This document shows, piece after piece, positions 9,308-54,803 of a stretch of 55,825 nucleotides of DNA. The stretch is from positions 1 through 55,825 of the forward strand of contig MFIU01000002.1 of NCBI GenBank assembly GCA_001778985.1, in the 5' to 3' direction. Each line of letters begins with the position of its first letter. Position 1 is the stretch's first letter. The DNA is from Candidatus Giovannonibacteria bacterium RIFOXYD1_FULL_48_21. GTDB lineage: Bacteria > Patescibacteriota > Minisyncoccia > JACPKW01 > UBA11713. The position numbers and the translations under genes were made by a program. Under the pieces are notes generated by a model. It made no database searches. It was not told the origin of the DNA and was given only the letters and a program-made list of their open reading frames with translations.

Positions 9308-9380
9308 CCGCCCATAGCTCAATTGGCAGAGCAGCTCCCTTTTAAGGAGAAGGTTCCAGGTTCGATTCCTGGTGGGCGGA
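9308..9380 (+). tRNA. tRNA-Lys (anticodon UUU)
   Basis: Hand-folded cloverleaf: acceptor CCGCCCA/TGGGCGG, D stem GCTC/GAGC, anticodon loop CTTTTAA, T arm CCAGG-TTCGATT-CCTGG, discriminator A. CCA is not encoded. Confidence 0.85.
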
Positions 9381-9388
9381 CAATAGAA

Positions 9389-23630: not shown

Positions 23631-24884
23631 ATGGAAGTTCGGACCCGGATCGCGCCCTCTCCTACTGGTTTCTTGCATTTAGGCACGGCTCGCACCGCGC
23701 TTTTCAACTGGCTTTTTGCCAGACAACATCAAGGAAAATTTATTTTAAGAATCGAGGACACCGATAAAGAACGCTCGCGCCCGGAATTTGAAAAGGACAT
23801 CGTGGAAGGCTTAAGGTGGCTTGGGGCGGATTGGGATGAGTTCCATCGCCAATCGGAGCGAATTGAGATTTATAAAAAATATTTGAAAAAACTCCTTGAT
23901 TCCGGCCAGGCTTATTTTTCGGACGTAGTTCACTTCAAAAACCCGGGCAGAAAGGTTCGTTTTCACGACTCGATTAGGGGGGAGATAGAATTCGACACGA
24001 AAGAACTCGGTGATTTTATCATCGCGAAAAGTGAAGAGGAGGTTTTGTACCATTTTGCCGTTGTCGTTGATGACTTTGAGATGAAAATAAGCCACGTCAT
24101 CAGAGGGGAGGACCATATTTCAAACACTCCGCGGCAGATTTTGATCCAGGAGGCGTTGGGTTTCCCCAGGCCGCAATACGCGCATCTTCCTCTGATTCTC
24201 GGGCCGGACCGAACAAAACTTTCCAAGCGCCACGGAGCCGAATCAGTCCGCGAATATAAGGAGGCGGGATATTTGCCGGAAGCGCTGGTCAATTTTCTTT
24301 CGCTTTTGGGCTGGCATCCTAAAGACGAAAAGGAAATATTTTCCAAAGAAGAATTAATCAAAGAATTTTCGCTCGAGCGAGCACAGAAAGGAGGCGCGGT
24401 CTTTGATATCAAGAAACTGGAATGGCTAAACGGCGAATATATCCGCGAAAAATCTCTGGAAGATCTTTTGGAGCTCAGCCGTCCTTATTTGGGCCAGACT
24501 GATGATGAAAAGCTGAAGAAAATTCTCGCCCTGGAGAAAACGAGATTGAACAAACTTTCTGATTTGAGGGAAGCCGCGCTATATTTTTTCAAAGAGCCTG
24601 AATACTCCAAAGAACTTTTGAGCCCGCCTGCGCGGGCAGGCTGGAAGGGAACTGAAGATTATCAATTGATAAAAAAGCATCTGAAAAAGATAACGGAACT
24701 CCTGCCGGATTCAGATAAAATTATGTCCTACGCCGAGAAAGAGGGCAGGGGAGAGGTTTTATGGCCGCTCCGGGTGGCGCTTTCCGGCCGGAAAAACTCT
24801 CCCGGACCTTTCGAAATTATGGAAGTTTTAGGAAAAGAAGAAAGTATAAAACGTATAAAACATGCGCTCGAGGTTCTGGATTAG
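23631..24884 (+). CDS. gltX: glutamyl-tRNA synthetase (short, 417 aa)
   Basis: It has the HIGH region (RIAPSPTGFLHLGTARTALFNW), RIEDTD and KMSKS (KLSKRHG). The C-terminal anticodon-binding region is shorter than usual. Confidence 0.9.
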   Translation: MEVRTRIAPSPTGFLHLGTARTALFNWLFARQHQGKFILRIEDTDKERSRPEFEKDIVEGLRWLGADWDEFHRQSERIEIYKKYLKKLLDSGQAYFSDVVHFKNPGRKVRFHDSIRGEIEFDTKELGDFIIAKSEEEVLYHFAVVVDDFEMKISHVIRGEDHISNTPRQILIQEALGFPRPQYAHLPLILGPDRTKLSKRHGAESVREYKEAGYLPEALVNFLSLLGWHPKDEKEIFSKEELIKEFSLERAQKGGAVFDIKKLEWLNGEYIREKSLEDLLELSRPYLGQTDDEKLKKILALEKTRLNKLSDLREAALYFFKEPEYSKELLSPPARAGWKGTEDYQLIKKHLKKITELLPDSDKIMSYAEKEGRGEVLWPLRVALSGRKNSPGPFEIMEVLGKEESIKRIKHALEVLD

Positions 24885-26100
24885 TTTGTTTGGCATTTGG
24901 ATTTTGTTATTTGGGATTTCTGGTGCGGCTACCGTTGACGAGCTGAAGGAATCTATCCAGGAGCGGGAGGGTCAAATCAGCGAAATAGAGGCGGAGATTG
25001 AAGAGTATCAGCGTCAGATTGACGTCAAGGTGGCCGAAGTGGGTACGCTTAAGAATGAAATTTTACGCCTGGAAGCGCTTTTAAAAAAATTAAACGCCGA
25101 GATCCGGCTGACCCAAAGCAAAATCCAAGCCTCCCAATTGACTCTGGAGAAGTTGAACATCGAAATCGGCGATAAATCCGAAGAGATTGAAGAGCAAAAG
25201 GAGGCCCTGGGAGAGATTCTGCGCAGTATCTACGAATCCGAGAGCGAATCCTTGGTAGAGATACTTCTGAAGCATCGCGCCCTTTCTGATTTTTTCGGCA
25301 ACCTCCGGCAGATTGAGAATCTGGAAGCGGCCGTGGGAAAAGATTTGGAAGTTTTAAAAACGCTTAAAAAAGAGCTGGAAGAACGCGAGGCCCAGGAGCT
25401 CGCGGCAAAGAAAAAACTGGATGATTTGTCTTTGGAGCTGAAAGACCGCCGCGCCATCGAAGAGGCAGGCCGCCAGAATAAAAACCAGCTTTTGAAAATT
25501 ACAAAAAATAAGGAGGCGGAATATCAAAAACTTTTGCGGGAGCGCGAGAAACAGCGAGCCTCAATCATCGAAGAAATTCGGGAGATTGAAGATGAACTTA
25601 GACTTTTGATTGACCCCTCTTCTTTGCCGGCGCCGCGTCCCGGAGTTCTGGCCTGGCCGCTCGCCGCGCCGAAAATTACCCAGGGCTTCGGGCGCACGGA
25701 TTTCGCGCTCAATACCGATGTCTACGGCGAGAAGAATCATAACGGCATTGACCTTAAAGCTTCCATCGGCACTCCAATTTTGTCGGCCGAAGACGGAGTG
25801 GTGAAGGCCGCGGGAAATTCGGATTTAATCTGCCCGGGCGGCTCTTACGGCAAATGGATTTTAATCGAACACCCTAATCGTCTGGCTACCCTTTACGCTC
25901 ACCTCTCGCATATTCGAATTTTAACGGACAGCAATGTGGCGCGGGGGGATATTATCGGTTACAGCGGCGATACTGGCTATACCACTGGCCCGCATCTTCA
26001 CTTCACGGTTTATGACGCGCGCACAGTCCAGATAAAGCCTTCTAGAGTTTGTGGTTTGTTGCCGTATGGAGGCTATCTTGACCCAATGGTTTATCTATAG
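24862..26100 (+). CDS. M23-family peptidoglycan metalloendopeptidase with an EnvC-like coiled-coil N-terminus
   Basis: It has a signal anchor, a long heptad-rich region, and the M23 motifs HNGIDL and GYSGDTGYTTGPHLHF. Confidence 0.85.
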   Translation: MRSRFWISLFGIWILLFGISGAATVDELKESIQEREGQISEIEAEIEEYQRQIDVKVAEVGTLKNEILRLEALLKKLNAEIRLTQSKIQASQLTLEKLNIEIGDKSEEIEEQKEALGEILRSIYESESESLVEILLKHRALSDFFGNLRQIENLEAAVGKDLEVLKTLKKELEEREAQELAAKKKLDDLSLELKDRRAIEEAGRQNKNQLLKITKNKEAEYQKLLREREKQRASIIEEIREIEDELRLLIDPSSLPAPRPGVLAWPLAAPKITQGFGRTDFALNTDVYGEKNHNGIDLKASIGTPILSAEDGVVKAAGNSDLICPGGSYGKWILIEHPNRLATLYAHLSHIRILTDSNVARGDIIGYSGDTGYTTGPHLHFTVYDARTVQIKPSRVCGLLPYGGYLDPMVYL

Positions 26101-26358
26101 ATATTAATGTTATTAAAGTTTATAAAAGTGAAAGGCCCCGGAATCGGAGCCTCTACTGTGGAAAAGAATCTTTTTGAAAATTTTATCTTGACAAAAGAAC
26201 TGATAAAGAGAAAAAACTGGGTCCAAAGAGCTAAAAGGAGAACTAAGGAGGAACTTTTGTTCTAAGAATAACATTTTTTGACAGCGCGTCAATATAGTTT
26301 TCCACAGCATTTGCTTCAAAAAAGTATACCGGCATACTAGACTTAAGCTAGATATCAG

Positions 26359-26387
26359 GGAAAGAGTCTTCTTTCCTTTTTTATTTT
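26359..26387 (+). terminator. intrinsic-terminator-like hairpin plus T-tract, 26 nt upstream of the giant ORF
   Basis: The stem is GGAAAGA-gtct-TCTTTCC (26359-26376), followed by TTTTTTATTTT. Confidence 0.5.
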
Positions 26388-26412
26388 GGCAAAGGGCTTA
26401 TGAATTACATCT

Positions 26413-29400
26413 TTGGAATCAAGGCAACACAACGTAGCCGACCTAATGAAGCGGCTTGGGCTTTCCAAGACCACGATTTTGCGTTGGGAAAAGGAAGGCA
26501 AGATACCGCCAGGACGCCGCGACGAGCTTGGCTGGCGCTGGTGGACCGAGGAGGAATTTGAGGGAATAGCAAAACTTACTTCTTCGGATTTTTCGAGGGA
26601 ATTTTTACCGAAACTTTCCAAAAAACCTTCAATAAAAGAAACGCCGCGTTTTACCTTTCCTGCCTTGCCGGCCTTGTCGGCAGACAGGCCGGCAGGCAGG
26701 CCTTCTTTTCGTACTTTCTTGGCGCCGGCTCTTTTGGCGGTTTTGGTTTTTAGCGCGGTCGCGGCTGATTTCGTTTCTTATTTCGAGAACGCGAGCTTCG
26801 TCGCCTCCGAGCGCCTTCAATACTCCGCTTTGTATCTGCGAAATCTAGTTCCGGCCAAACCCAGCGTCCAGTTTTCGTTCCGGCTCCCTGACGATTATTT
26901 TCTCGCCATGGGCCAGGACTTGAAGTCCTCGCTTCCGGAAATCGGCGCAGGCCTCCAAGACGGAATTTTTGAATTGCGGCGCTTGGTCGCCAATGTCGAA
27001 CCTCCAAGGTTCGACATTCGAATTTTGCGCCCAAGAAAATTTTCTCTTAGTCCCGGCTATTTTAGTCAAAGCGGCGCGCTTTTGGCAAATTTGACCGGCG
27101 AGGCCGAGAACTTTTTTTACCGCGTCGGCCAAACTTTAAACCGAATTTTTGATGAAAACAAACAATTTGTTTACTCGCTTTTTGCGCCTGCCTCGCCGGA
27201 AGGCGGGCCTCCAAATTTAACATCCGATGTTGGAGGAGAAACACCGGGCGTCGCTCCGGTTCTGTCTTCCGAGACCCAGTTTTTGCGTTTTGAGATTGAC
27301 TCTCTGCGTAAGGAGCTCGAAGCGCTTCGGGCCGCAGGAGTTCGTCTGGAAGGCGAAAAAGTAGTCGAGCGTATTTTTGAGCGGACTTTGGCCGAATTGC
27401 CTTCAGGCGACCTTGACGCGAAACTCGCTTCTTTGAATCAAGCCTTGCGCGAGGAGATTCTGACGGTCAGACGAGCCTTGGACGAAAAAACCCAGGCGAA
27501 CTTCAACGCCCTCGCGCTCACGCAGAGAATAAATACCCTGGGCCCGGTTTCAATTTCTTCTCCAACCATCTCAACTCCCACCATTACCGGTCAGGTGGAT
27601 AGTCTTACGGTGCGAACTCTGACCATTACCGGAAGCTGTTCCGGCTGCGGCGGCGGAAGTTCTAATACCAGCGGCTGGACCGATGACGGAACTATCGTCA
27701 GGCTCACTGATATCGGGGATTTGGTTGGGATCGGAACTTCAAGCCCTTACGCAAAATTGTCAGTGGTGGGAGAAGTCGTGGCAGCTTCCTTCACTGCGAC
27801 TTCCACCACCGCTACCTCAACTTTTTCCTGGGGAATTCAAACCCCGGCTTTAAATGTAACTTCGACAAGCGCGACTTCTACCTTTTCAAACGGCTTAAGA
27901 CTTTCAGGAGGCTGTTTTGAGCTTTCCAATGGCACCTGCGCTGGTTCAGGTGCTTCCATTGGCGGAGCAATTTCCGGAGGAACTTCGGGCTCTGTTCTTT
28001 TCGTGGACGCGAGCGCGAATCTGGCCCAAGACAACGCGAACCTTTTTTGGGATGACACGGGAAATATCCTAAGGGTTCTCAATGCCTCCAGCACCAATGC
28101 TTCGGTGATAGGCACTTTGACTATTGGCGGAACCGCGACCACGACCTTGTCAGGCAACACCGCCACCAGCACTTTCGCAGCCGGACTCGCTCTGACCGGC
28201 ACCTTGGATGTGAATAGCTCGACTGCCACTTCCACCTTTGCCAACGGCTTGAGGGTGGAAGGAGGCTGCGTCACTGTGGCTGGAGCATGCCTGACCAACC
28301 TGGGCCAGTCAATTGACCTGGCTTCTGAAGTCAGCGGCGTCCTGCCGATTGCGAATGGCGGCACCAACAATTCTTCAGCTTACACTTCTGGCTCTGTGAT
28401 TTTCTCAAATGGAACCTCTCTCACCCAGGACAATTCAAATTTCTTCTTTGACGACGCCAACAACCGGCTGGGAATCGGAACCACCTCTCCTTGGGGAATC
28501 CTTTCAGTGGAATCCTCTGCCGCGGCCGGAGCAACAAATCCCATCTTCGTGGTCTCTGACCAAGGGACCAGCACTCCCTTCCTGATCGTGGAAGGAAATC
28601 GAGGTTTTGTCGGGATTGGTACGACCACGCCGCAAGCCCAACTAGGTCTTAGTACTTTCTCCGGCTTCCCAAGCTTTATGGTTGGCTCTTCCACGACCCA
28701 GTTTTTGATTGACAAAAACGGCAACGTAGGCATCGGGACGACGGGGCCAGGGGCGGCACTTGATACAAAAATTACTTCTACTGCTGGACAAGGTACACTG
28801 ATTGCTCAATTTGGTTCTCAAACGTCCGCCAGAATCAGGCTGTACGATGAAACATCCACATTGGGTCCGGCAATAGATTTCAACGCTGGGAATGTTGGAC
28901 GAATCACTGGGGCAGGGAACATTGCAATAATGCCAACCAACAACGGCAACGTCGGCATCGGGACGACGAGTCCGGGGCAATTGCTCTCGGTCGCGGGGGA
29001 TATTTTGGGAAATAATATTATCGGTTCTTACTTTACAGCCACTTCGACGACCGCCACCAGCACTTTCGCAGCCGGACTCGCTCTGACCGGCACACTCGAC
29101 GTAAACAGCACTTCAGCCACGAGCACTTTCGCCAACGGCATCAGAATAGAAGGCGGGGGATTGACTGCTTCCACCCTCACTTCCTGCACAGCTCTGGAAA
29201 CGGATGCAAACGGAAATGTCCTTTGCGGTTCTGATGCCACGGGTTCAGGAGTAGGGATAGGCGACACAGTTACCTCCGGCACTACCGGCTCGATACTATT
29301 TGTCGGCTCCGGCCCCGTGTTAGCCCAGGACAACGCCAACCTTTTTTGGGATGACACCAACAACCGGCTGGGCATCGGAACGACGAGCCCGTGGGCAAAA

Positions 29401-31638
29401 CTTTCTGTAAATAATTACAGCTCCGGAGCTTCATCAGTTCCTCTGTTTACCGTAGCTTCTTCAACCGGAACTGGCGCAACTTCCACCGCGTTTATTATTA
29501 ATTCAGTCGGCAATATCGGCATCGGGACGACGAGTCCAAATGCTCTACTGCATCTTTTTTCAACAGTAGCTTCAAACAATAATCCCCAGTTGATTCTTCA
29601 AAATTATGCTGCCGGAGGTTATTTGCCCAGTATTTTATTTCAAGGCAATGAGGCCGGTTCACCAAATACTTATTCTGTTTCAAGAATAGTCGGCGGTTTT
29701 GAAGGTGGAGCAAATTGGTCAGATGCGGCTCTTGGTTTTGACGTGGGACAAACGTTGTCAAGGGTAATAACCCTTAAAGGTACCGGCAACGTCGGCATCG
29801 CTTCTACGACTCCTTTCTCTACTCTTTCCGTAAACGGTAACGTATGGCTTAACTCGAATATCCTAAACATCGCTTCTTCTTCTGCCTCCACTTTAACTGT
29901 TAATTATTTATCACGCGCGACTACCACAATTCCTTCCAATCAAATCTACGCCTGGTCAATCGCCACCTCCACCACCGCTTCTCCCTTGCTCACTTTCAAC
30001 ACCAATGGGCCCTACGCCACAACCTCAATAAACGGCGGGTTCGTAATCGATTCTGGAGCGGTTAATTATGATTCATCAAGCGGCATAATTTCCGCGGATT
30101 CAATTCAGACCGGGCCTATGGGTTTTGACACCGACGCCGGAATTGTTTCCTGGATTGACATGCCGGTCGCGACCACTTCGACTTCCAGAATTTCCATGAG
30201 CTATTCGGCGCAGATTGATTCAATTCCGATTCTGACGGTCTATGGAGAATCAACTGCGGGCGGAGGCGTTTCCACCACCACCGTGGGTATCGGCACAACT
30301 ACCCCGACCTGGCTTTTGCATCTTGCTTCCACCACGCCCTACCTCGCGCTCTCGGACACTGATGCCGGGCTCGACCAGAAGCACTGGCTCATTTCCAATC
30401 AATCCGGCTCCTTGAGATTCGGGACTTCCTCGGACGCGAATCCCTTTTCCACCAGCACCAATTTTATGCTCCAGAGGGGCGGGAACGCCGCGGTGCCGAA
30501 AGGCGCTTTCTGCGTGGATGACGATAACAGCGAGTGTCCGGTCGGTGCAATCCAGGGACGTTTGTACTCCATCAACGCCACGGTGCTTACGGACGACATC
30601 GCGGAGTTCATGCGCTCGGCAGAAAGCTTGGAGCCGGGGGATATCGTGATTCCTGATTCTGATTTCAAAAACAAGACCGCACGAAGTTACGAGCAGGAGC
30701 GAAGAAGCCGTGATTTGGGAACCACACTCGGCTTGGACGAGATTGGAGTTAAAAAATCTGTCAAACCTTACGAGTCCGCCATCCTTGGAGTTATTTCCAC
30801 CAAGCCGGGAATCTCGCTTGGAGGCTTCGAACCCACTCTGCAGGATTATGAAGTTACGCTCGCCGGACGGGTTCCGGTGAAAGTTTCGCTCGAGGGCGGC
30901 GCGATTAAAATCGGAGACAGGATTACTTCGAGTCCGATACCGGGAGTGGGCATGAAGGCAACAAGTTCCGGAATCACCATCGGAATTGCGCTTGAAGATT
31001 TCAACCCTTCGACAGGCTCAGGGCAAGCGTCCTCCACCGAGAAAATTCTGGTTTTTGTAAATCTCGGCTACTCCAAACTTGACGCCTCCATTCAAGGCGG
31101 CGAGATTGTCGAGCCCTCGGCTGTAGCCCTACGGGCGAAGCTGGACGGCGAAGGAGAATCGGCTTTCTGGGGGATTGACCAAACTTCCGGACGCATTAAA
31201 TTCATCTCGCCCTTGGACCTCAACGATTTTGATATCGTGAACGTCCGAGCGATTCTGGGCTCCGGAGGGAAATGGTCGATTGATTTCTCCGGCCGCCTCA
31301 CAGCCGAGGAAGTGTATACCAAAAAACTTTGTCTGGAAGAAGTCTGCGTGACCAAAGAGGAGCTGAAGAAACTTCTGGACTTAGCCGGTTCGGCGAGCCA
31401 GGCTTCGTCGCCTGAGGAGCAAACCTCCGATGAAGGTTTACCGGAGGAGGGGCCTCCGGAAGAGCCCCAGCCCTCCTCAACCGCACCCGGGAAAACATCC
31501 GATGTTTTAACTTCTTCAACATCGGATGTTGAGGAGGGTGCGGTTTCACCGGGCGAAGAGAGCCCGCCGCCGGAGCCGCCTCCTGAGCCCGAGCCTCCTC
31601 CAGTTTCTGATACCAGTACCACCACTCCGGCAACATGA
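26413..31638 (+). CDS. giant (1,741 aa) membrane-anchored protein: N-terminal MerR-type HTH, one TM helix, coiled coil, tail-fibre-like Thr/Ser/Gly-rich repeats, and a Pro/Glu-rich tail
   Basis: It is a single uninterrupted ORF. The HTH is LGLSKTTILRWEKEGKIPPGRRDELGWRWWTEEEF and the TM segment is FLAPALLAVLVFSAVAADFV. There are nine G(I/V)G(T/S)(T/S)xP..L(S/H)(V/L) motifs and six ATSTF(A/S)xG(L/I) motifs. The start is TTG 26413 or ATG 26446. Confidence 0.8.
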   Translation: MESRQHNVADLMKRLGLSKTTILRWEKEGKIPPGRRDELGWRWWTEEEFEGIAKLTSSDFSREFLPKLSKKPSIKETPRFTFPALPALSADRPAGRPSFRTFLAPALLAVLVFSAVAADFVSYFENASFVASERLQYSALYLRNLVPAKPSVQFSFRLPDDYFLAMGQDLKSSLPEIGAGLQDGIFELRRLVANVEPPRFDIRILRPRKFSLSPGYFSQSGALLANLTGEAENFFYRVGQTLNRIFDENKQFVYSLFAPASPEGGPPNLTSDVGGETPGVAPVLSSETQFLRFEIDSLRKELEALRAAGVRLEGEKVVERIFERTLAELPSGDLDAKLASLNQALREEILTVRRALDEKTQANFNALALTQRINTLGPVSISSPTISTPTITGQVDSLTVRTLTITGSCSGCGGGSSNTSGWTDDGTIVRLTDIGDLVGIGTSSPYAKLSVVGEVVAASFTATSTTATSTFSWGIQTPALNVTSTSATSTFSNGLRLSGGCFELSNGTCAGSGASIGGAISGGTSGSVLFVDASANLAQDNANLFWDDTGNILRVLNASSTNASVIGTLTIGGTATTTLSGNTATSTFAAGLALTGTLDVNSSTATSTFANGLRVEGGCVTVAGACLTNLGQSIDLASEVSGVLPIANGGTNNSSAYTSGSVIFSNGTSLTQDNSNFFFDDANNRLGIGTTSPWGILSVESSAAAGATNPIFVVSDQGTSTPFLIVEGNRGFVGIGTTTPQAQLGLSTFSGFPSFMVGSSTTQFLIDKNGNVGIGTTGPGAALDTKITSTAGQGTLIAQFGSQTSARIRLYDETSTLGPAIDFNAGNVGRITGAGNIAIMPTNNGNVGIGTTSPGQLLSVAGDILGNNIIGSYFTATSTTATSTFAAGLALTGTLDVNSTSATSTFANGIRIEGGGLTASTLTSCTALETDANGNVLCGSDATGSGVGIGDTVTSGTTGSILFVGSGPVLAQDNANLFWDDTNNRLGIGTTSPWAKLSVNNYSSGASSVPLFTVASSTGTGATSTAFIINSVGNIGIGTTSPNALLHLFSTVASNNNPQLILQNYAAGGYLPSILFQGNEAGSPNTYSVSRIVGGFEGGANWSDAALGFDVGQTLSRVITLKGTGNVGIASTTPFSTLSVNGNVWLNSNILNIASSSASTLTVNYLSRATTTIPSNQIYAWSIATSTTASPLLTFNTNGPYATTSINGGFVIDSGAVNYDSSSGIISADSIQTGPMGFDTDAGIVSWIDMPVATTSTSRISMSYSAQIDSIPILTVYGESTAGGGVSTTTVGIGTTTPTWLLHLASTTPYLALSDTDAGLDQKHWLISNQSGSLRFGTSSDANPFSTSTNFMLQRGGNAAVPKGAFCVDDDNSECPVGAIQGRLYSINATVLTDDIAEFMRSAESLEPGDIVIPDSDFKNKTARSYEQERRSRDLGTTLGLDEIGVKKSVKPYESAILGVISTKPGISLGGFEPTLQDYEVTLAGRVPVKVSLEGGAIKIGDRITSSPIPGVGMKATSSGITIGIALEDFNPSTGSGQASSTEKILVFVNLGYSKLDASIQGGEIVEPSAVALRAKLDGEGESAFWGIDQTSGRIKFISPLDLNDFDIVNVRAILGSGGKWSIDFSGRLTAEEVYTKKLCLEEVCVTKEELKKLLDLAGSASQASSPEEQTSDEGLPEEGPPEEPQPSSTAPGKTSDVLTSSTSDVEEGAVSPGEESPPPEPPPEPEPPPVSDTSTTTPAT
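26659..26700 (+). repeat. GC-rich palindromic element (class B) in-frame in the giant ORF
   Basis: The arms CCTGCCTTGCCGGCC (26659-26673) and GGCCGGCAGGCAGG (26687-26700) are inverted repeats with one indel. The loop contains TGTC..GACA. The element encodes PALPALSADRPAGR, between the HTH and the TM helix. Confidence 0.7.
28159..28202 (+). repeat. 44-bp exact intragenic direct repeat (second copy at 29050-29093)
   Basis: ACCGCCACCAGCACTTTCGCAGCCGGACTCGCTCTGACCGGCAC is identical at both positions. It encodes TATSTFAAGLALTGT. Confidence 0.9.
31005..31029 (+). repeat. 25-bp interspersed element CCCTTCGACAGGCTCAGGGCAAGCG (copy 1, in the giant ORF, read as PSTGSGQA)
   Basis: It is identical to 31961-31985 and sits in the same reading frame in both genes. 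Variants occur at 1-16 and 47449-47465. Confidence 0.9.
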
Positions 31639-32153
31639 GCGTAAAAATCAAAATAATAATTTTAGTTTCAATCCTCATCGCGGCTGGCGCCACGGCTTTT
31701 TGGCTCTGGCCGGAGAAAACGGCGCCGGAGGCAGGAGGAGCGGATAAAAATGAATATAAATCCGAATTGTTCAATTTTTCTTTTACGCCTCCCAACTCTA
31801 ATCTCCAGGAATTTGACGACGAAAACGGGCACGTGATTTTGGGAAGTTCTTTTCAGATTTTCATAACTCCGTTTGACGAAACAGGGCCGATTACTCCGGA
31901 ACGGATTAAAAAAGATCTGCCGAACGCGGTTGTTGAAAATCCAACTCCGACAAAAGTAGGCCCTTCGACAGGCTCAGGGCAAGCGGACGCCTTGAGCTTT
32001 ATCGGGCAGGGAGACGGATTTAAAACCGCCGAAGTCTGGTTTGTCTGGCCGCCCGAACCCTACCCGAATGGGAATTACCTGTATCAGATAACGGCGAAGG
32101 TGGAAGACGCAAAATTGCTGGAAGGGATTATTTCAACATGGAGCTTCCAATAA
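31635..32153 (+). CDS. small membrane-anchored hypothetical protein (172 aa)
   Basis: Its ATG overlaps the giant ORF's stop (ATGA), which suggests translational coupling. The N-terminal TM segment is IIILVSILIAAGATAFWLW. No recognisable domain was found. Confidence 0.7.
   Translation: MSVKIKIIILVSILIAAGATAFWLWPEKTAPEAGGADKNEYKSELFNFSFTPPNSNLQEFDDENGHVILGSSFQIFITPFDETGPITPERIKKDLPNAVVENPTPTKVGPSTGSGQADALSFIGQGDGFKTAEVWFVWPPEPYPNGNYLYQITAKVEDAKLLEGIISTWSFQ
31961..31985 (+). repeat. 25-bp interspersed element, copy 2 (read as PSTGSGQA in the 172-aa ORF)
   Basis: It matches 31005-31029 exactly, while the flanks are unrelated. Confidence 0.9.
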
Positions 32154-32154
32154 A

Positions 32155-32183
32155 TTTTCAATTTTGCAATTTATAATTTTCAA
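32155..32183. repeat. left AT-rich inverted repeat flanking the four-helix-bundle gene
   Basis: TTTTCAATTTTGCAATTTATAATTTTCAA matches the reverse complement of 32586-32613 (TTATCAATTTACAATTTACAATTTTCAG) at about 24 of 28 positions by hand alignment. Confidence 0.55.
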
Positions 32184-32193
32184 TCAATTTTTA

Positions 32194-32562
32194 ATGAACC
32201 AATTTTCAAATCAGAAATACGATTTAGAAGAAAGAACAGCGCAATTCGGTGAAGCTATAATTAAGCTTTGTCGAAGCGTCAATCAAGATGTTATTGCGAA
32301 ACCGATTGTTTCCCAATTGATTCGTTCGGCTACCAGTATCGGCGCGAACTACATGGAAGCAAATGGCGCAAGTTCCAAAAAGGACTTTATCAATAAAATA
32401 TTTATTTGCAAAAAAGAAGCGCAAGAGACAAAGCACTGGCTACGCATGTTGGTCGTTTGTGCGCCTGATAAAAACTTAGAGGCAAGAAAGCTGTGGCAAG
32501 AATGCCAAGAGCTGACTTTGATATTCCAAAAAATCGCTTCGTCAGCGCGAAATAAAGTTTGA
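32194..32562 (+). CDS. four-helix-bundle protein (23S rRNA intervening-sequence protein / DGR Avd-like family)
   Basis: YDLEERT..F...I......V........SQLIRSATSIGANYMEANGA.SKKDF..K...C.KEA.ET.HWL is typical of the TIGR02436/PF05635 family. The start is taken at ATG 32194; the ORF track uses TTG 32164. Confidence 0.8.
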   Translation: MNQFSNQKYDLEERTAQFGEAIIKLCRSVNQDVIAKPIVSQLIRSATSIGANYMEANGASSKKDFINKIFICKKEAQETKHWLRMLVVCAPDKNLEARKLWQECQELTLIFQKIASSARNKV

Positions 32563-34766
32563 AAATTATTATGTTTGAGAATTCACTGAAAATTGTAAAT
32601 TGTAAATTGATAATTCCGCTTTTGGTTGTTTTGGTTTTTGTATTGTCGCCAAAAGCGGTTGATGCCGCCTTACTCATAAACCGCCCTCTTTACATCGGTC
32701 TAACCTCCGGCCTCGTCGGCTACTGGTCTTTTGACGGGCCGGATGTTGCCGGGATTCCCAGCACAGCAACCACACCTGGGACAGTTTACGATCGCTCTGG
32801 CAACGGAAATAACGGGCTATACTGGAATGCCACTGGCACGCCTCCCGCCATCGGCCGCATCGGCCAGGCGCTGGAATTCAAAGGAGCGCCCACTCGTACG
32901 TACGTAAAAGTTTCCAATTTCTGTTCACAGATTTCTAATAATGCGGGCGCTATCTCGGTTTGGATAAAAGCTGCAGTAATTACAACTGTTGTGAATGACA
33001 ACCATTATATTTTCAATTGCGGTTCGGGCCACAGCCCCTCCTTAGTGATTATAGGCGGGAGCACCCCAGCGCTTAGGTTTATAAAAAGTACTAGCAATAG
33101 TAACGTAATGTCGTCACCCGCCGCTAATCGTTGGTATTATATAGTTGCTACATGGGATACAAACGTACAACGCGTTTATGTTGATTCGGTTCAAACAGAT
33201 TCTGATGCTATAGCTTCAATATCTCCTTCTGGAGATGCAGCGATAGGCACTTTTGCTACCATTCCTCAAAATAACAATTATTTCAACGGCATCATTGACG
33301 ACTTCCGCGTCTACAACCGCGCGCTAACGGCCGACGAAATCAAGCGGCTATACAAAATCGGGGCGACGCTGAAAGTCAATAAACCCAGCTATACCGGTCT
33401 TGATTCCGGCCTCGTCGGATACTGGTCTTTTGACGGGCCGGATATGTACAACAACACTGCGCTTGACCGCTCCGGGCAGGGCAACAACGGCACCCTCACC
33501 AACGGCCCCAAACGCGCTATCGGCAAAATCGGCCAGGCGCTGGAGTTTGACGCCTTTTCTGGGACGCATTCTCATGTACAAGTAGGAGATAAAGCGAGTT
33601 TAGACTTTGGAACAAGCGACTTTACGCTTTCTGCGTGGATAAAAGCCAAAGCCACTCAGGATTCATTTCCATCAATAATACATAAAGGGGCGACCGCAGG
33701 AAGTGGTTCTCCAGGTTATTGGTGGATCCTCTCTTCTGGCATATCAAAATTTTTTATGAGCAACAGTACGAATAGAGTAGAAAGTATAGCGATTACAAAT
33801 CTTAGAGACAATAGCTGGCATCATGTTTCTGTAGTGGTTGACCGCGACGGCATGACAACTCATTACATCGATGGAATAGTTGATGACGCAGATAATTTAA
33901 GCTCTTACAGTGCCAGCGATATAAATGCAACAGAAGAGTTTAGTATAGGTGGAAGAGATACCGGAGGCTCGTTGGAATTTACCGGCCTCATTGATGACGT
34001 CCGCATCTACAACCGCGAGCTTTCTCCGGACGAAATCAAGCGGCTCTACCGCATCGGGGCGACGCTGAAGGTTAATAAACCCCTTGCCACCGGCTCTCTG
34101 ACCTCCGGCCTCGTCGGCTATTGGTCTTTTGACGGGCCGGATATGGCGGGAAACACGGCTTTTGACCGAAGCGGGCAGGGCAACAACGGTACGCTCACCA
34201 ACGGCCCTGTTCGCACTCTCGGCAAAATCGGCCAGGCGCTGGATTTTGATGGGAGTAATGATTATGTGGGTATGGGCGATCCTACAAGCGGCATTTTGGA
34301 TTTTTCTGATACTCAAAGCTTTACAATTTCTGTGTGGTCATATCGTACCGGTCCAAATACTATTGCTCAGCGATTAGTTGCTAAAAATCAAACTGGAGCA
34401 GCACAAAACGGTTATCGTTTGATTTATGAGACAGATGATAAGTACACGATGCGTGTTGATGACTCCGTTAATGGGGTTCAGGTTACCTCATCAGCTATGA
34501 ACACATTAAATATCTGGCACCATGTCGTTGGCGTCATTGATAGAGCAAATCAAATTTTGCGGCTATATGTTGACGGTGTGGAAAATGGAACCCCTCTTGA
34601 TATTTCAGCCGTAGGAAGCCTAGCAAATGCACTAAACTTCGATATAGGAGTTGCTAGCAACTTAACGGCTGGTAGTTTTGTGGTTGGTAAAATTGACGAT
34701 GTCCGCGTCTATAACAGGGTATTAACTAGCGATGAAATAAAACGTTTATATAATCTTGGCCGATGA
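32559..34766 (+). CDS. secreted or anchored protein with three tandem LamG (concanavalin-A-like lectin) modules
   Basis: It has an N-terminal hydrophobic anchor. The junction LVGYWSFDGPD...DRSG.GNNG......IGKIGQAL.FDG occurs three times and IDD.R.YNR.L...EIKRLY occurs three times. The start is TTG 32559 or ATG 32571. Confidence 0.8.
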   Translation: MKIIMFENSLKIVNCKLIIPLLVVLVFVLSPKAVDAALLINRPLYIGLTSGLVGYWSFDGPDVAGIPSTATTPGTVYDRSGNGNNGLYWNATGTPPAIGRIGQALEFKGAPTRTYVKVSNFCSQISNNAGAISVWIKAAVITTVVNDNHYIFNCGSGHSPSLVIIGGSTPALRFIKSTSNSNVMSSPAANRWYYIVATWDTNVQRVYVDSVQTDSDAIASISPSGDAAIGTFATIPQNNNYFNGIIDDFRVYNRALTADEIKRLYKIGATLKVNKPSYTGLDSGLVGYWSFDGPDMYNNTALDRSGQGNNGTLTNGPKRAIGKIGQALEFDAFSGTHSHVQVGDKASLDFGTSDFTLSAWIKAKATQDSFPSIIHKGATAGSGSPGYWWILSSGISKFFMSNSTNRVESIAITNLRDNSWHHVSVVVDRDGMTTHYIDGIVDDADNLSSYSASDINATEEFSIGGRDTGGSLEFTGLIDDVRIYNRELSPDEIKRLYRIGATLKVNKPLATGSLTSGLVGYWSFDGPDMAGNTAFDRSGQGNNGTLTNGPVRTLGKIGQALDFDGSNDYVGMGDPTSGILDFSDTQSFTISVWSYRTGPNTIAQRLVAKNQTGAAQNGYRLIYETDDKYTMRVDDSVNGVQVTSSAMNTLNIWHHVVGVIDRANQILRLYVDGVENGTPLDISAVGSLANALNFDIGVASNLTAGSFVVGKIDDVRVYNRVLTSDEIKRLYNLGR
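32586..32613. repeat. right AT-rich inverted repeat flanking the four-helix-bundle gene
   Basis: CTGAAAATTGTAAATTGTAAATTGATAA lies within the 5' end of the LamG ORF. See 32155-32183. Confidence 0.55.
32706..34142 (+). repeat. LamG module junction blocks recurring with a 699-bp period
   Basis: TCCGGCCTCGTCGG(C/A)TA(C/T)TGGTCTTTTGACGGGCCGGAT occurs at 32706, 33405 and 34104, a spacing of 699 and 699 bp. ATCGGCCAGGCGCTGGA is also present three times. Confidence 0.9.
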
Positions 34767-34773
34767 GCAAATT

Positions 34774-34894
34774 GTTCGCATCTATTTACCCCGTTAGAAA
34801 TAGGACGCGCACGCAAGCGTCCGCGACTTCTAACGGGGCAAGCCGCGCGCTTTCGGCGGATGAAATCAAGCGGCTATACAACCTTGGGAGATAG
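34774..34894 (+). pseudogene. relic 3' end of a LamG module (VRIY / SRALSADEIKRLYNLGR*) interrupted by a palindromic element
   Basis: GTTCGCATCTAT (VRIY) lies at 34774-34785 and AGC CGC GCG CTT TCG GCG GAT GAA ATC AAG CGG CTA TAC AAC CTT GGG AGA TAG at 34841-34894. It is GC-rich and shares 20 nt exactly with module 1 (GAAATCAAGCGGCTATACAA). The two parts are separated by a 55-nt insert. Confidence 0.7.
34789..34838 (+). repeat. palindromic element (class A), copy 2
   Basis: The termini are CCCCGTTAGAAAT ... ACTTCTAACGGGG, with an inner hairpin GGACGC-N8-GCGTCC. The termini match the rpsI copy (3691-3764). Confidence 0.8.
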
Positions 34895-34926
34895 TAATAA
34901 GGACTAAAATATGCTATGATTAAAAA

Positions 34927-35175
34927 ATGGGAGCTCATAAAACCAAAGAAGCAATCCCATTTCGCCCAAGCCTTTTTTGGGACGCGGATCCGGCCACAAT
35001 AGACCCGGATAAAAATGCCAAGTATATTATTGAGCGGATAATGGATTTTGGTAATGATCAGGAAGCCCGCTGGATATATAGGCGATATCCTCGCCCGTTT
35101 CTTCGTGATGTTGTAAAAAAATCGCGGAGTCTTCATCCGCAATCCAGAGTATTGTGGGAAGCTCTGACGAAGTAA
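34927..35175 (+). CDS. small protein partnered with an AbiEii-type nucleotidyltransferase (putative antitoxin)
   Basis: The 82-aa product has the motif LFWDADPATIDPDKNAKYIIERIMDFG. It overlaps the downstream toxin-like gene by 22 nt. By my recollection this family commonly precedes AbiEii/DUF1814 genes. Confidence 0.6.
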   Translation: MGAHKTKEAIPFRPSLFWDADPATIDPDKNAKYIIERIMDFGNDQEARWIYRRYPRPFLRDVVKKSRSLHPQSRVLWEALTK

Positions 35176-35831
35176 CAAAAGAGTGGCATACGGATGCCCT
35201 TCCGGCGGAAACAAAACGCGCGCTGGATTTTTTGTCTCGTGCGGAATGGTTGCGCCAATCTTCGTGGTATCTTGCCGGCGGCACTGCTTTAGCATTGCAT
35301 GTTGGCCATCGGGAATCGCTTGATCTTGATTTTTTTACACAAGATAAGTCTGTAGAAGTTTCTCTTATTTCTGGTCATTTTTCAAACGATGTATGGCAAA
35401 CGGAGATTCTTCGTGAGGGAACGTTGTACGGGAAGTTCCTCGGCGCAAAAATAAGCTTTATTTTGTATCCATTTTTTCACCGAAGATCAGCGCCCCGTGA
35501 ATATGGAGCAATTCGGGTGCTCGCGCCTTCTGATGTGGCAGTTATGAAAATAATAGCCATTAGCCAGCGCGGCAAGAAACGCGATTTTGTAGATCTCTAC
35601 TGGTATGCGCTTCATCAAGAGCCAATACTAGATGTGATTCGCCGTTTGCCGGACCAATATCCAACTGTTGCTCATGATTTCCACCATATTCTAAAAAGCA
35701 TGATGTATTTTGCAGATGCGGAAGCCGATCCTATGCCTACCTTATTTTTCAAGGCAGATTGGAAAACGATTAAAGCATATTTTCAAAAAGTGGTTCCTGA
35801 AATTACAAAAGAATTGCTCCGGTTAAAATAA
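35154..35831 (+). CDS. nucleotidyltransferase AbiEii/AbiGii toxin family protein
   Basis: WYLAGGTALALHVGHRESLDLDFF is the NTase signature of the family. The start is GTG 35154. Confidence 0.75.
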   Translation: MGSSDEVTKEWHTDALPAETKRALDFLSRAEWLRQSSWYLAGGTALALHVGHRESLDLDFFTQDKSVEVSLISGHFSNDVWQTEILREGTLYGKFLGAKISFILYPFFHRRSAPREYGAIRVLAPSDVAVMKIIAISQRGKKRDFVDLYWYALHQEPILDVIRRLPDQYPTVAHDFHHILKSMMYFADAEADPMPTLFFKADWKTIKAYFQKVVPEITKELLRLK

Positions 35832-35845
35832 TTGCGCACCGACTT

Positions 35846-36625
35846 TTACGATAATACTGCTCCGATAATTTCAGAGTGGCCGTTGAGAAAACTTTCGGGG
35901 GTGGTTTCTTTTTTGCCCTCGAGTTTTATTTTTAGTGGAATGAGGAAACCGTCCTCGGTCGCAATTTTAAAATCTTTCGCGACCTCTCCGAATTTAAAAT
36001 TGTGTTTTATCGTTTCAATTTTTGCCTCAAGAATCAAAAGTCTTTTATCATTCCAGAAGGCAAATGTTCCCGGCTCGGGATTTAAAGCTCGAATCTTTCT
36101 CGAAATTTCCTCGCCTGATTTTGACCAATCAATATGGCCGTCTTCGGTTTTAATGAAACGGGAATACGTGGCTTCGCTTTCATTTTGTTCCCTGAGAGTG
36201 ATTTCTCCCTTGAGCCATTTTGGGATAGTCTCGATTAAGAGCGGAACACCTATGGCAATGAGTTTTTCTTCGAGCGAAAGATAGGTGTCGTCCGGTTCAA
36301 TTCGCAATTCTTTTTGCGCGAGAATCGGACCGGCGTCCACTTTTGGGGCGGCAAGATGGATGGTAACGCCGGTCATGGCGTCGCCGGCTAGAATCGCCGC
36401 CTGCACTGGCGCGGGCCCGCGCCAGTGCGGCAAGAGCGAGTGGTGCACGTTTAAGATTCCATTTTTGGGGGCGGCGAGGACTTCTTTGGGAATAATCTTC
36501 CCATAATAGGCGATAATCCCCAGGTCTGGTTCGGAAGAAGAGATTTCAAATCCGGCAGATATCAGCGCTTGCCGGTAGCGCTGAGAAAACTTCGCGGTTC
36601 CAAAAAAAATTATTTTAATTTTCAT
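35846..36625 (-). CDS. fmt: methionyl-tRNA formyltransferase (short form)
   Basis: Motifs are MKIKIIFFGT, NVHHSLLPHWRGPAPVQAAILAGD..TGVTI and VDAGPILAQ. The start is taken at the MKIKIIFFGT Met; the ORF track extends to 36652. Confidence 0.88.
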   Translation of the reverse strand: MKIKIIFFGTAKFSQRYRQALISAGFEISSSEPDLGIIAYYGKIIPKEVLAAPKNGILNVHHSLLPHWRGPAPVQAAILAGDAMTGVTIHLAAPKVDAGPILAQKELRIEPDDTYLSLEEKLIAIGVPLLIETIPKWLKGEITLREQNESEATYSRFIKTEDGHIDWSKSGEEISRKIRALNPEPGTFAFWNDKRLLILEAKIETIKHNFKFGEVAKDFKIATEDGFLIPLKIKLEGKKETTPESFLNGHSEIIGAVLS

Positions 36626-37154
36626 CGGCTCCATTTTCCGCTTTCTCGTCAAGGCGTTTTAAATTTTTTGCCTTGTCTATGAAGAGAATTCCGTTAAGAT
36701 GGTCAGTCTCGTGCTGGATTACCTGCGCGAAAAGTCCAGAGGCCGAACGCCGAAATTTTTTGCCCTCTTCGTTATAGGCCTGTACCACCACTCTTTTGGC
36801 GCGCTCAATCCGGCCGTAGAGTTTGTCAGCGGAAAGACAACCCTCGGACAAAAGTTCTTTCTCTCTGGAGCGGCGGGTTATTTCAGGATTTATAAAAACA
36901 AGATGCTTCCAGTTTTTTTGGGTTTGCCTTTTATCTCGTTTCGCCGCCAAAGCCTCCTCTGACACTAAAAAAATTCTTAGCGGTTTCCCGACCTGCGGGG
37001 CGGCAAGACCAACGCCGATGTCGATTGCCGCCAGAGTCTGAGACATATCTTTGAGCAAGTCTTGCAGGCCTTTTGATTTTATCTCCTCCGGCTTGATTTC
37101 TTGGGCGGTCTCGCGGAGAATTTTATGCGGTTCCTGGAGAATTTTGAGTATCAT
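36615..37154 (-). CDS. def: peptide deformylase
   Basis: GVGLAAPQVG, EGCLS, HETDHLNG. Confidence 0.93.
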   Translation of the reverse strand: MILKILQEPHKILRETAQEIKPEEIKSKGLQDLLKDMSQTLAAIDIGVGLAAPQVGKPLRIFLVSEEALAAKRDKRQTQKNWKHLVFINPEITRRSREKELLSEGCLSADKLYGRIERAKRVVVQAYNEEGKKFRRSASGLFAQVIQHETDHLNGILFIDKAKNLKRLDEKAENGADEN

Positions 37155-45757: not shown

Positions 45758-46315
45758 ATGGCAAAATATTACTATAGCCCGGCTAAGCAAAAAGCGTTAC
45801 TGCTGCTCGCCAGCGGAATTATTTTAGGATTGTCTCGTTCTCCCAAGGTACATTGGCGTATATTGAAGAATATTCCGAAAGCATGGAGGGAAATTGACCG
45901 CAAGACGCTGCGCCGGATTGTCCAGGAATTGAAGTATGACCGTCTGGTAGATTTTAAGGAAGAACCCGACGGAACAATTTCTGTAGTGCTCAATGAGAAG
46001 GGGAAAAAGATACGACTAAATTATGATTTAGAGAATATGACAATCAAACAGCCCAGCCGCTGGGATAGAAAGTGGCGGATAGTTGTTTTCGATATTCCAG
46101 AGAAGAAAAAAGCCGCGCGCGAAGCATTGCGAAAAAAACTTCTCGATCTAGAATTTTATCAGCTGCAGCGCAGTGTTTTGGTGCATCCATATGAATGCAA
46201 AAGTGAAATCGCCTTTATCTCCGAGTTTTTTGAAATACGGAGTAACCTCCGATATATAGCCGCCGAGCATATAGATAACGAGGCGGAATTGAAATTGCAT
46301 TTTGGTTTGAACTAA
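45758..46315 (+). CDS. winged-helix / PaaX-C-terminal-like (Cas2-fold-like) putative transcription regulator
   Basis: WDRKWRIVVFDIPEKKKAAREALRKKLLDLEFYQLQRSVLVHP resembles the PaaX C-terminal pattern W.G.W..V.FDIPE..R..R..LR..L...GF..L..SVW..P. The family assignment comes from recollection of the motif only. Confidence 0.45.
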   Translation: MAKYYYSPAKQKALLLLASGIILGLSRSPKVHWRILKNIPKAWREIDRKTLRRIVQELKYDRLVDFKEEPDGTISVVLNEKGKKIRLNYDLENMTIKQPSRWDRKWRIVVFDIPEKKKAAREALRKKLLDLEFYQLQRSVLVHPYECKSEIAFISEFFEIRSNLRYIAAEHIDNEAELKLHFGLN

Positions 46316-54679: not shown

Positions 54680-54706
54680 CCGCAGTTGTCCACAACTGCG
54701 GTTTTT
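54680..54706 (+). terminator. rho-independent terminator downstream of lysS
   Basis: The perfect 10-bp stem CCGCAGTTGT-cc-ACAACTGCGG is followed by TTTTT and preceded by TTTTTT. Confidence 0.85.
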
Positions 54707-54720
54707 GCTAATGTTAATAA

Positions 54721-54777: not shown

Positions 54778-54803
54778 TTACTCAATTTTCCTTGAAAAAT
54801 AAG

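Follow-up and report, generated by a model that had tools for sequence, protein, structure and literature searches.

A probably native operon for a membrane-anchored, phage-tail-fibre-like giant protein with a MerR-type N-terminus in a Giovannonibacteria-like bacterium

We analyzed a 55,825-nucleotide stretch of DNA from Candidatus Giovannonibacteria bacterium RIFOXYD1_FULL_48_21 (hereafter, the window), in which a 9.7-kb segment (26101-35831) encodes a giant fibre-like protein and several smaller neighbors. A preliminary reading of the window (the original prediction) had taken this segment for a variable, accessory cell-surface island between housekeeping blocks, and all of the genes that it listed were found in place. 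The left flank consists of gltX (23631-24884) and an M23 peptidase gene (24862-26100), and the right flank of fmt (35846-36652, minus strand) followed by def and priA, also on the opposite strand. The M23 peptidase has its closest relatives, with 65-66% identity, in metagenome-assembled genomes (MAGs) of Candidatus Giovannonibacteria, which belong to the Parcubacteria of the CPR (candidate phyla radiation, Patescibacteria). The M23 gene ends at an AT-rich leader of 312 bp (26101-26412; GC 0.37-0.44) with two terminator-like hairpins (26131-26154 and 26357-26388). This is followed, on the plus strand throughout, by a giant open reading frame of 1741 aa with a conserved TTG start (26413-31638) and by the gene for a 172-aa protein with an N-terminal transmembrane (TM) helix (p172; 31635-32153). 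Next come a gene for a four-helix-bundle protein of 132 aa (32164-32562; probable start ATG 32194) and a gene for a protein with three Laminin_G_3 domains (the LamG protein; 32559-34766; Pfam E value 4.5e-73; probable start ATG 32571). A relic LamG 3' end (34844-34900), in which 34844-34891 reads RALSADEIKRLYNLGR and is followed by three stops, precedes a gene for an 82-aa DUF6922 protein (34927-35175; PF21956, 9e-18) and the overlapping gene for an AbiEii-family nucleotidyltransferase (35154-35831; PF08843, 1.8e-17). As had been noticed by eye, several short repeat families occur in the segment and its composition alternates: in the LamG units, the GC content is 0.36-0.45 in the central part and rises to 0.54-0.65 toward both ends. 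An Rfam scan of the window detected one tRNA and no other family.

The giant protein starts with a MerR-type winged helix-turn-helix (HTH) domain that is predicted to be cytoplasmic (aa 1-55, 26413-26577), which was recognized by PF00376 and by alignment with CueR and HI_0186. A basic linker rich in Lys, Arg, and Pro (aa 56-97) leads to the sole TM helix found by hydropathy scan (aa 98-125, 26704-26787), a juxtamembrane region (aa 126-290), and a charged, heptad-like stalk whose composition suggests a coiled coil (aa 290-375, 27280-27537). Beyond the stalk lie an S/T/G-rich beta-fibre with nine GIGTTSP units, six ATSTF units, and paired cysteines (aa 400-1394, 27610-30594), a C-terminal chaperone domain assigned by structure model, Foldseek, and profile (aa 1395-1660, 30595-31392), and a Pro/Glu/Ser/Thr-rich tail (aa 1661-1741, 31393-31638). 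The distal part of the fibre, about aa 1130-1394, is presumed to be the tip. Because positive charge lies on the N-terminal side of the TM helix (an Arg-rich flank, with 19 Lys and Arg residues in aa 1-99), the predicted topology is N-in/C-out. In Pfam, the protein matched nothing but this HTH (aa 8-43), which scored 30.6 bits (cutoff 28.2). A single-sequence search of the Protein Data Bank (PDB) gave only weak HTH matches for the giant and none for p172, and an NCBIfam search matched neither protein. Repeat families D3, D4, D7, and D9 fall within the fibre-coding region.

We found 191 homologues of the giant, about 1000-3000 aa long, and all of those with a named source come from Patescibacteria. 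Many of them carry Peptidase_S74, DUF5011/Ig-like, or YadA-head domains and have names such as 'tail fiber domain-containing protein'. Other CPR giants also have the stalk, though not always at this position (matches to aa 250-420 in P0002, P0153, and others). Two orthologues differ in their distal parts. In locus L113 (6001-10152), the HTH-TM giant that follows the M23 gene ends in a Peptidase_S74 chaperone instead of the Peptidase_G2 (G2) type described below, and in L004 (11605-12717) the orthologue is a fibreless protein of only 370 aa (HTH, TM helix, and stalk) that still precedes the p172, four-helix-bundle, and LamG genes. These two forms indicate that the distal half evolves by module swapping. 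We also observed a near-palindromic 13-mer, AACATCCGATGTT, which encodes TSDV and occurs at 27219-27231, 31494-31506, and 31518-31530, within the window only in the giant gene. The latter two copies build an inverted repeat with 28-nt arms (31479-31545), which forms a long hairpin about 100 nt before the giant stop and p172 start, and in other species (L096 and L098-L100) the element is also present in p172 homologues as KTSDVESPKTSDVEE insertions.

An AlphaFold (AF2) model of the C-terminal domain was built on a 22-sequence alignment, and its core had predicted local distance difference test (pLDDT) values of 85-92. The best PDB matches of this model in Foldseek were the phi29 gp12 structures 3suc (E value 7.6e-4) and 3gqh (1.1e-3; TM-score normalized to the target, 0.57), and the search against BFVD returned a 'preneck appendage protein' (1.8e-11, 21-25% identity). 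The alignment profile matched residues 1-52 of 3gqh_A (5.9e-4), and the invariant D1395-I-A-E1398 and the motif EPGDIV...GVISTKPG were aligned to the released gp12 fragment, with D1395 and E1398 on D1 and E4. Since D1395 aligns with residue 1 of 3gqh_A, the profile match starts at the first residue of the released gp12 piece. The C-terminal domain of phi29 gp12 is needed for trimer assembly and is later cleaved off (PMC3357383). PF11962 (Peptidase_G2, the IMC autoproteolytic cleavage domain) was detected in 6 of the 22 aligned homologues (best E value 9.3e-8). The domain is located near the C-terminus of at least 36 homologues, and relatives of it were found on at least 77 viral contigs of IMG/VR, with 27-52% identity over the core. 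Taking these results together, the model and the profile show a gp12-type (Peptidase_G2) autochaperone fold with a D-x-x-E start at the C-terminal end of the giant. With this match in fold and profile, and with repeat units that match the fibres of Bdellovibrio discussed below, the earlier description of the giant as an HTH-TM-fibre protein was borne out. An exact 25-nt repeat, CCCTTCGACAGGCTCAGGGCAAGCG, is located in frame at 31005-31029 in the chaperone and at 31961-31985 in p172, where it encodes PSTGSGQA. Its 21-nt core is identical in the p172 genes of L096 and L098-L100, even though the p172 proteins are 55-67% identical, and is absent from the other p172 homologues, and it resembles a small in-frame mobile or converted element.

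The start codon of p172 overlaps the TGA stop of the giant as ATGA, as had been pointed out, and the two genes are thereby linked in a manner that, at the sequence level, shows translational coupling. The 18 homologues of p172 that we found have an N-terminal helix and a conserved domain in common. An AF2 model of p172 (pLDDT 79; pTM, the predicted TM-score, 0.71) was compared by Foldseek, as the original prediction had proposed, and returned PsbP (1v2b and 2xb3; TM-scores 0.45-0.56), SciW (Eag), DcrB, and LpqN with E values of 3e-4 to 2e-2. Thus, p172 models as a membrane helix plus an alpha-beta-alpha sandwich of the PsbP/DcrB/DUF1795 (Eag) kind. Because no sequence family matches, this likeness is a fold resemblance only. 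The PsbP/Eag/DcrB/LpqN fold occurs in envelope-associated binding and chaperone proteins.

The LamG protein, which had been regarded as lectin-like, has a signal-peptide-like N-terminus (hydrophobic aa 8-41), no anchor, and three concanavalin-like lectin-fold domains. These domains match virion structural and tail-fibre proteins of PHROG, and the protein matches the fimbrial model TafC of NCBIfam with a score under the model cutoff. The special meaning that had been attached to its 'conserved blocks' did not survive: they are generic Laminin_G_3 motifs (LVGYWSFDG... and IDDVRIYNRALSADEIKRLY), and since nucleotide identity in the LamG ends is about the same as amino-acid identity, nothing beyond protein constraint is needed. 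DNA-level recombination signals in these blocks were accordingly rejected as unnecessary. The relic was confirmed; it is the fourth copy of repeat family D1 and represents a second LamG C-terminus in frame 3, 80 nt past the functional stop. It indicates that recombination in the conserved block that encodes the LamG C-terminus has exchanged LamG cassettes, and relic pieces of a like kind adjoin AbiEii in L098-L100. A LamG gene that appeared to be split in L083 was discarded as a variant, because it is interrupted by a run of Ns (a scaffold gap).

We compared the gene order in 80 Parcubacteria loci with the ftsW-murG-gltX-M23 block, which is conserved across all of them, and in further loci fetched via p172 homologues. 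In the nearest relatives, the contigs end within the giant or LamG genes, so that the comparison does not cover the right-hand boundary. An orthologue of the HTH-giant lies 3' of the M23 gene in the five nearest loci (L001-L005), and in L004 and L005 the p172, four-helix-bundle, and LamG genes follow in the same order as in the window. In L103 and L113, the order is M23, HTH-giant, p172, and LamG, with overlapping stops and starts. The M23 peptidases of these loci (L001-L005, L103, and L113) are 58-66% identical to that of the window, which makes at least seven species-level relatives. More distant Giovannonibacteria (L006-L017) carry a different conserved block 3' of M23, and this site is thus a lineage-level synteny breakpoint rather than a strain-level insertion. 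Of 17 metagenome loci that carry a p172 homologue, 11 have a LamG gene directly 3' of it, and all 10 that reach at least 1 kb upstream have directly 5' of it a fibre gene with the window-type domain at its C-terminal end. The order fibre/IMC, p172, and LamG was seen in L096-L100, L104, L106, L107, and L109. In L081, three 3×LamG genes come after a homologous giant that lies in another neighborhood (3' of gatB). Two named p172 homologues led to four more loci: in L095, two LamG genes precede p172, and in L092-L094 (one locus on three contigs), p172 follows a Mur ligase gene and faces fmt and def on the opposite strand. The trio of giant, p172, and LamG therefore recurs across species and genome positions, and these genes are neighbors in most p172-bearing loci. 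The cell-surface ensemble of the original prediction is thus real and recurrent, and its accessory nature is contradicted by the gene order kept in L001-L005, L103, and L113.

Neither foreign composition nor population-level variability was apparent for the core genes. The GC contents at third codon positions (GC3) of the giant (0.545) and p172 (0.503) are ordinary for the window (mean 0.548±0.064); the values are 0.454 for LamG, 0.391 for the four-helix-bundle gene, and 0.376 for AbiEii. Identity to the window is 99.9-100% over 10-20 kb, with unchanged gene order, in nine public contigs, among them GCA_001778665.1 and GCA_003510385.1, most of which come from groundwater metagenomes. Only about 6 single-nucleotide polymorphisms (SNPs) were found across these nine assemblies in the compared stretch, so that the consensus sequences give no hint of hypervariation or phase variation. 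We found no integrase, transposase, adjacent tRNA, or flanking direct repeats at the segment. The core thus lacks the marks of a horizontally acquired island, and only the four-helix-bundle gene and AbiEii are compositionally atypical.

The four-helix-bundle protein belongs to the 23S rRNA intervening sequence protein (IVP) family (PF05635, 2.7e-16; TIGR02436, 1.6e-22). The original prediction called it Avd-like; the four-helix-bundle family stands, and a diversity-generating retroelement (DGR), if one was implied, does not, as there is no adjacent reverse transcriptase (RT) gene and there are no adenine-biased repeats. An adenine bias was sought in the repeat pairs D1, D2, D4, D6, and D9 and was found in none. 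With no RT among the genes of 26.1-35.8 kb and no population variation, the DGR reading was rejected. The IVP gene is present in L004, L005, and L096 and is missing in L097, L103, and L113, where p172 and LamG abut or overlap. It is bracketed, as had been described, by inverted AT-rich repeats with 20-nt arms. Short tandem arrays of AT-rich heptamers (AATTTTC and AAATTGT) lie in inverted orientation on its two sides, at 32153-32184 and 32590-32609. The downstream array runs into the first LamG codons, and the arrangement is similar in L005 and L096.

The two-gene AbiEii-type module was likewise found, with DUF6922 overlapping AbiEii. AbiEii scored 64.5 bits with PF08843 (cutoff 22.5) and gave weak and partial matches in PADLOC (AbiEii, 7e-9). 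Upstream of AbiEii, neither Pfam nor PADLOC matched an AbiEi-type antitoxin; the gene there is DUF6922, and judged from its sequence the pair is toxin-antitoxin-like. In L112, the DUF6922-AbiEii pair is located beside a p172 homologue; in L098-L100, AbiEii lies 3' of LamG. Both the IVP gene and this pair look like later-inserted passengers. In L081 (16389-26375), three tandem 3×LamG genes are interleaved with small NYN, GIY-YIG, and PemK-toxin genes and are followed by a Y1 transposase gene. Arrays of LamG genes seem to draw in small selfish genes, of which IVP and AbiEii are the examples in the window. On the grounds of synteny, GC3, and the patchy distribution of IVP, we consider that the giant, p172, and LamG genes probably form a native, vertically inherited operon of a Giovannonibacteria-like lineage, which encodes a phage-tail-fibre-like anchored surface fibre and has received two passengers.

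We also aligned 6 orthologous leaders. The regions between the conserved boxes could not be aligned and RNAalifold was uninformative, so single-sequence folds were used. The hairpin just after the M23 stop (26131-26154) differs in sequence from species to species. Downstream of it are a box, TTTTCCACA (26298-26306), which is the window form of TTATCCACA, and a 14-bp palindrome, GTATACCGGCATAC (26324-26337), located between -35-like and -10-like hexamers with, by our reading, a 17-nt spacer. A hairpin with a T-run (26357-26388) is present in every orthologue; the leader hairpins fold at -9.7 to -23.7 kcal/mol throughout with different stem sequences. The palindrome (GTATACCGGyATAC) occurs in the leaders of all orthologues and is unique in the window; elsewhere in 1.57 Mb of fetched loci it had three matches with two mismatches or fewer, all in coding sequence. 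Three MerR-type HTH-TM genes in unrelated neighborhoods have related upstream regions: TTATCCACA is accompanied by a perfect 20-bp GTGGTATACCGGTATACCAC in L114, by GTATATCGGTATAC in L116, and by three AGTAT half-site-like repeats in L115. Giants with an HTH_17-type N-terminus (L081 and L082) have a TTATCCACA or TTTTCCACA box without the MerR-linked palindrome. These patterns suggest autoregulation of the giant by its own HTH at the palindrome, and the specific association of the palindrome with the MerR-type HTH is, at the level of sequence, the strongest indication so far that the HTH may bind its own promoter DNA.

The TTATCCACA 9-mer, which we take to equal the DnaA-box consensus, was rejected as a sign of a replication origin, given that a single box is present here and that the motif is a general intergenic one in these genomes. 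Among perfect TTATCCACA boxes, 22 of 43 were intergenic, as against 9% of the sequence, and half of these 22 lie before HTH-TM or giant genes, in a locus sample that is biased to such genes. A cluster of similar boxes at 54686-54771, upstream of mraZ (54792-55238), contains TGTGGATAA and TGTGGATAG as direct repeats 12 nt apart together with GTGGG repeats; it is conserved in L092 (5034-5154) and may represent MraZ operator repeats. At the other end of the giant leader, ATGAAT (26400-26405) stands 13 nt before the TTG start. This ATGAAW is invariant and out of frame with the equally invariant TTG in L001-L005 and L103, with no Shine-Dalgarno-like sequence in between. Gene callers place the start farther downstream, at ATG 26446, and so remove part of the conserved HTH. 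A programmed frameshift from the upstream ATG into the TTG frame was judged unlikely, as no slippery or stall context was seen.

The N-terminal module was found well beyond the window. Residues 6-55 of the giant align with the winged HTH of CueR and HI_0186, wing included; the TTG start and the N-terminal residues are conserved in L001-L005, and the DNA-contacting wing residues of MerR proteins (R-D-x-x-G-W-R-Y/W) are strongly conserved. Neither the MerR dimerization helix nor an effector domain was detected, and aa 55 is followed by the linker and TM helix. Because it lacks dimerization and effector domains, the giant is not a canonical MerR regulator. In a HMMER search with aa 1-420, the HTH (L.RWE.EGKIP.A.RD..GWRYYT) headed many proteins of 280-950 aa besides giants, and the shorter proteins that we examined have one TM helix 30-140 residues after it. 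We then took a census of the N-termini of 120 listed giant homologues, about 39 of which are truncated at this end and about 81 complete. An HTH_17-like type (Y..YL..L.R.GKI.A.RIGR.W.V, residues 5-62) was present in 39 of the 120, followed by a TM helix in 35 of these 39; 2 of the 120 start with the MerR type and 41 with a plain signal or anchor. As 41 of the roughly 81 complete proteins have an HTH start, the HTH-TM-fibre layout is found in roughly half of the complete giants. A literature search retrieved no paper describing HTH-TM giant proteins in CPR.

From these features, we propose the following mechanism. The giant would be inserted N-in/C-out, and the coiled coil and the C-terminal chaperone would drive trimerization outside the cell. 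The chaperone would then cleave itself off before D1395 and expose the fibre tip. p172 may sit at the base of the fibre as an assembly or anchoring partner, and the LamG protein may supply or extend glycan binding. The fibre would attach to another cell or surface, as do the mosaic adhesive trimer (MAT) fibres of Bdellovibrio, and the cytoplasmic HTH would bind the palindrome in its own promoter, so that the state of the fibre could feed back on expression. In a more general and more tentative form, many giant surface fibres of Patescibacteria may be the outer parts of single-pass, HTH-bearing membrane proteins, whose MerR-type members may bind GTATACCGGTATAC in their own promoters, so that adhesin and one-component sensor arm would be joined in one protein.

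Other readings of the locus were weighed against this one. A horizontally acquired, strain-variable accessory island that is kept between the housekeeping blocks by its toxin-antitoxin pair would fit the breakpoint at L006-L017, the low GC3 of IVP (0.39) and AbiEii (0.38), the recurrence of AbiEii at this module, and the fast evolution of the giant (28-39% identity versus 55-68% for its neighbors). We nevertheless regard it as improbable, and for the core genes as already largely refuted, as the gene order is found at the same position in at least seven species-level relatives, the composition of the giant and p172 is native, the search for an integrase, a transposase, a flanking tRNA, and direct repeats was negative, and the locus is clonal within the population. 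It is more improbable still that the segment is the remnant of a prophage or tailocin-like element, of which only the tail-fibre genes and a defense gene are left. G2 chaperones and LamG domains are indeed common in phage fibre and virion proteins, and AbiEii is a phage-defense and toxin-antitoxin family. However, no genes for capsid, portal, terminase, tail tube, baseplate, or integrase were found in or near the segment, the viral relatives are only 27-52% identical over the chaperone core, a membrane anchor and a cytoplasmic HTH would be needless for a virion fibre, and the locus is kept across species beside the same housekeeping genes. Alternatively, the fibre may be a structural or defensive part of the envelope, such as an S-layer spacer or anchor, a self-self adhesin, or a phage decoy or shield, with the LamG protein binding the cell's own glycans. 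The position of the locus directly after ftsW, murG, and the M23 peptidase gene, a p172 homologue inside the division and cell wall (dcw) cluster of L092, TTATCCACA-like boxes before mraZ, and PsbP/DcrB/LpqN-like folds in envelope-biogenesis lipoproteins would all agree with such a role, and nothing in the sequence identifies the ligand of the fibre. We consider this explanation unlikely, because the closest characterized cellular analogues, the MAT fibres, recognize prey surfaces (PMC10769870), and because fast divergence and the swapping of distal parts and chaperones (G2 here, S74 in L113) form the pattern expected when a changing partner is recognized.

The role of the HTH allows a further choice. 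As in RodZ, whose HTH binds MreB, it might serve as a cytoplasmic docking domain that ties the base of the fibre to a cytoskeletal or secretion component, with the palindrome read by another regulator. The occurrence of MerR-like and HTH_17-like types at one position in homologous giants fits such a generic anchoring role, and the TTATCCACA box is common to both HTH types and to unrelated genes, so that this element belongs to another factor. In contrast, the palindrome accompanies only MerR-type members, in four independent contexts, and the DNA-contacting wing residues are strongly conserved. We therefore treat docking as possible and somewhat doubtful. Several points weigh against the native fibre operon and its autoregulation. 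L082 has a homologous giant without adjacent p172 or LamG, and L092 has a p172 homologue without a giant, so the linkage is not obligatory. The chaperone model has a mean pLDDT of 61 and hence moderate overall confidence, and PF11962 was detected only in aligned homologues and not in the window protein itself. The putative promoter is followed by a terminator-like hairpin ahead of the start codon, a factor other than the HTH could read the palindrome, and the HTH could bind protein rather than DNA in the manner of RodZ. Finally, MerR proteins bind palindromes as dimers, and the fibre is expected to be trimeric.

Some genes elsewhere in the window deserve mention. A gene for a TraT-family lipoprotein (9443-10186, minus strand; PF05818, 2.7e-55) lies beside tRNA-Lys (9308-9381); TraT is a surface-exclusion and complement-resistance family of enterobacterial plasmids and is unexpected in a CPR genome. 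A gene for a trypsin-like peptidase (5667-6368, plus strand) has a GC content of 0.349 and a GC3 of 0.278, compared with a GC content of 0.493 for the window, and is probably foreign. A small protein (45758-46315, plus strand) has a PaaX-central/Cas2-like domain (PF20803, 2.3e-20); we saw no CRISPR array in the window.

The CPR bacteria that have been brought into culture live attached to other microorganisms, and to our knowledge type IV pili are the attachment structures of CPR that have been studied so far. The native fibre operon would thus add a second concrete candidate for attachment, a putatively phage-derived trimeric fibre that is widespread among the giants of Parcubacteria. Annotation has so far not taken these giants beyond 'hypothetical' or 'tail fiber domain-containing', and in the window protein Pfam misses the G2 chaperone. 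For expression, the system offers defined parts: the tip, the LamG lectin, the PsbP-like protein, and the chaperone, whose cleavage site is predicted. If the autoregulatory model is true, contact with a host or surface would be passed straight to transcription by a contact-sensing device undescribed in any bacterium, and the HTH-TM layout and palindrome would provide contact-dependent gene control in organisms with minimal regulatory repertoires and very few classical signaling systems.

Our best reading of the analysis is that the operon encodes a domesticated tail-fibre-like adhesin, functionally closest to the MAT fibres of Bdellovibrio and with a possible transmembrane regulatory role. MAT fibres are cellular phage-tail-fibre-like proteins, many of which have autocleaving chaperone ends (Caulton et al. 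2024; PMC10769870), and they are defined by a signal peptide and a subsequent conserved beta-rich N-terminal domain of about 130 aa (PMC10769870). Like them, the giant has a repetitive beta-fibre with the unit n-v-G-I-G-T-t-t-P, whose profile matched 8ol4, 8ond, and 8ojn with E values of 1.3e-3 to 5e-2, and variable distal parts with module swapping; the producer of the MAT fibres lives on other bacteria. Unlike them, the giant starts with a MerR HTH and a TM helix and has no MAT N-terminal domain, which places it outside the MAT family in the defined sense. Its chaperone is of the G2 (phi29 gp12) rather than the S74 type, it belongs to a conserved operon with PsbP-like and LamG proteins, and the organism that encodes it is a monoderm-like CPR bacterium. 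Phi29 gp12 (PF11962; 3SUC and 3GQH) resembles the giant in the C-terminal position of the domain after a beta shaft, in fold, and in the profile match over residues 1-52, whereas the giant is an anchored cellular protein of 1741 aa with a longer domain (about 265 aa plus an 80-aa Pro/Glu-rich tail) that holds the in-frame PSTGSGQA insertion and is predicted to be cleaved.

With the membrane-tethered one-component regulators ToxR, CadC, and TcpP and with RodZ, the giant shares its arrangement: a domain of the DNA-binding type lies at the N-terminus in the cytoplasm, one TM helix follows, and the remainder is extracytoplasmic, with a candidate operator in the gene's own promoter. The HTH of the giant, however, is of the MerR type and not of the OmpR/winged-helix or Xre type, and outside the membrane it has, instead of a small sensor, a fibre that exceeds 1600 aa and ends in an autochaperone. 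In MyRF, a eukaryotic membrane-bound transcription factor, a single polypeptide likewise contains a DNA-binding domain, a membrane span, and a trimerizing, self-cleaving chaperone of the phage-tailspike type (cited in PMC10769870). In MyRF, the S74/ICA chaperone is cytoplasmic and lies between the DNA-binding domain and the membrane, so that cleavage frees the factor, whereas the chaperone of the giant is located at the far extracellular end and its cleavage therefore cannot free the HTH. Among the passengers, AbiEii (PF08843) is preceded by a small overlapping gene as in AbiE type IV toxin-antitoxin systems, with DUF6922 in place of an AbiEi-type antitoxin. The IVP protein shares its family (PF05635/TIGR02436) with the Avd proteins of DGRs and, like them, is encoded beside the gene for a surface-binding protein, in a segment that differs from DGRs in having no RT, no template/variable repeat pair, and no variation among the nine assemblies.

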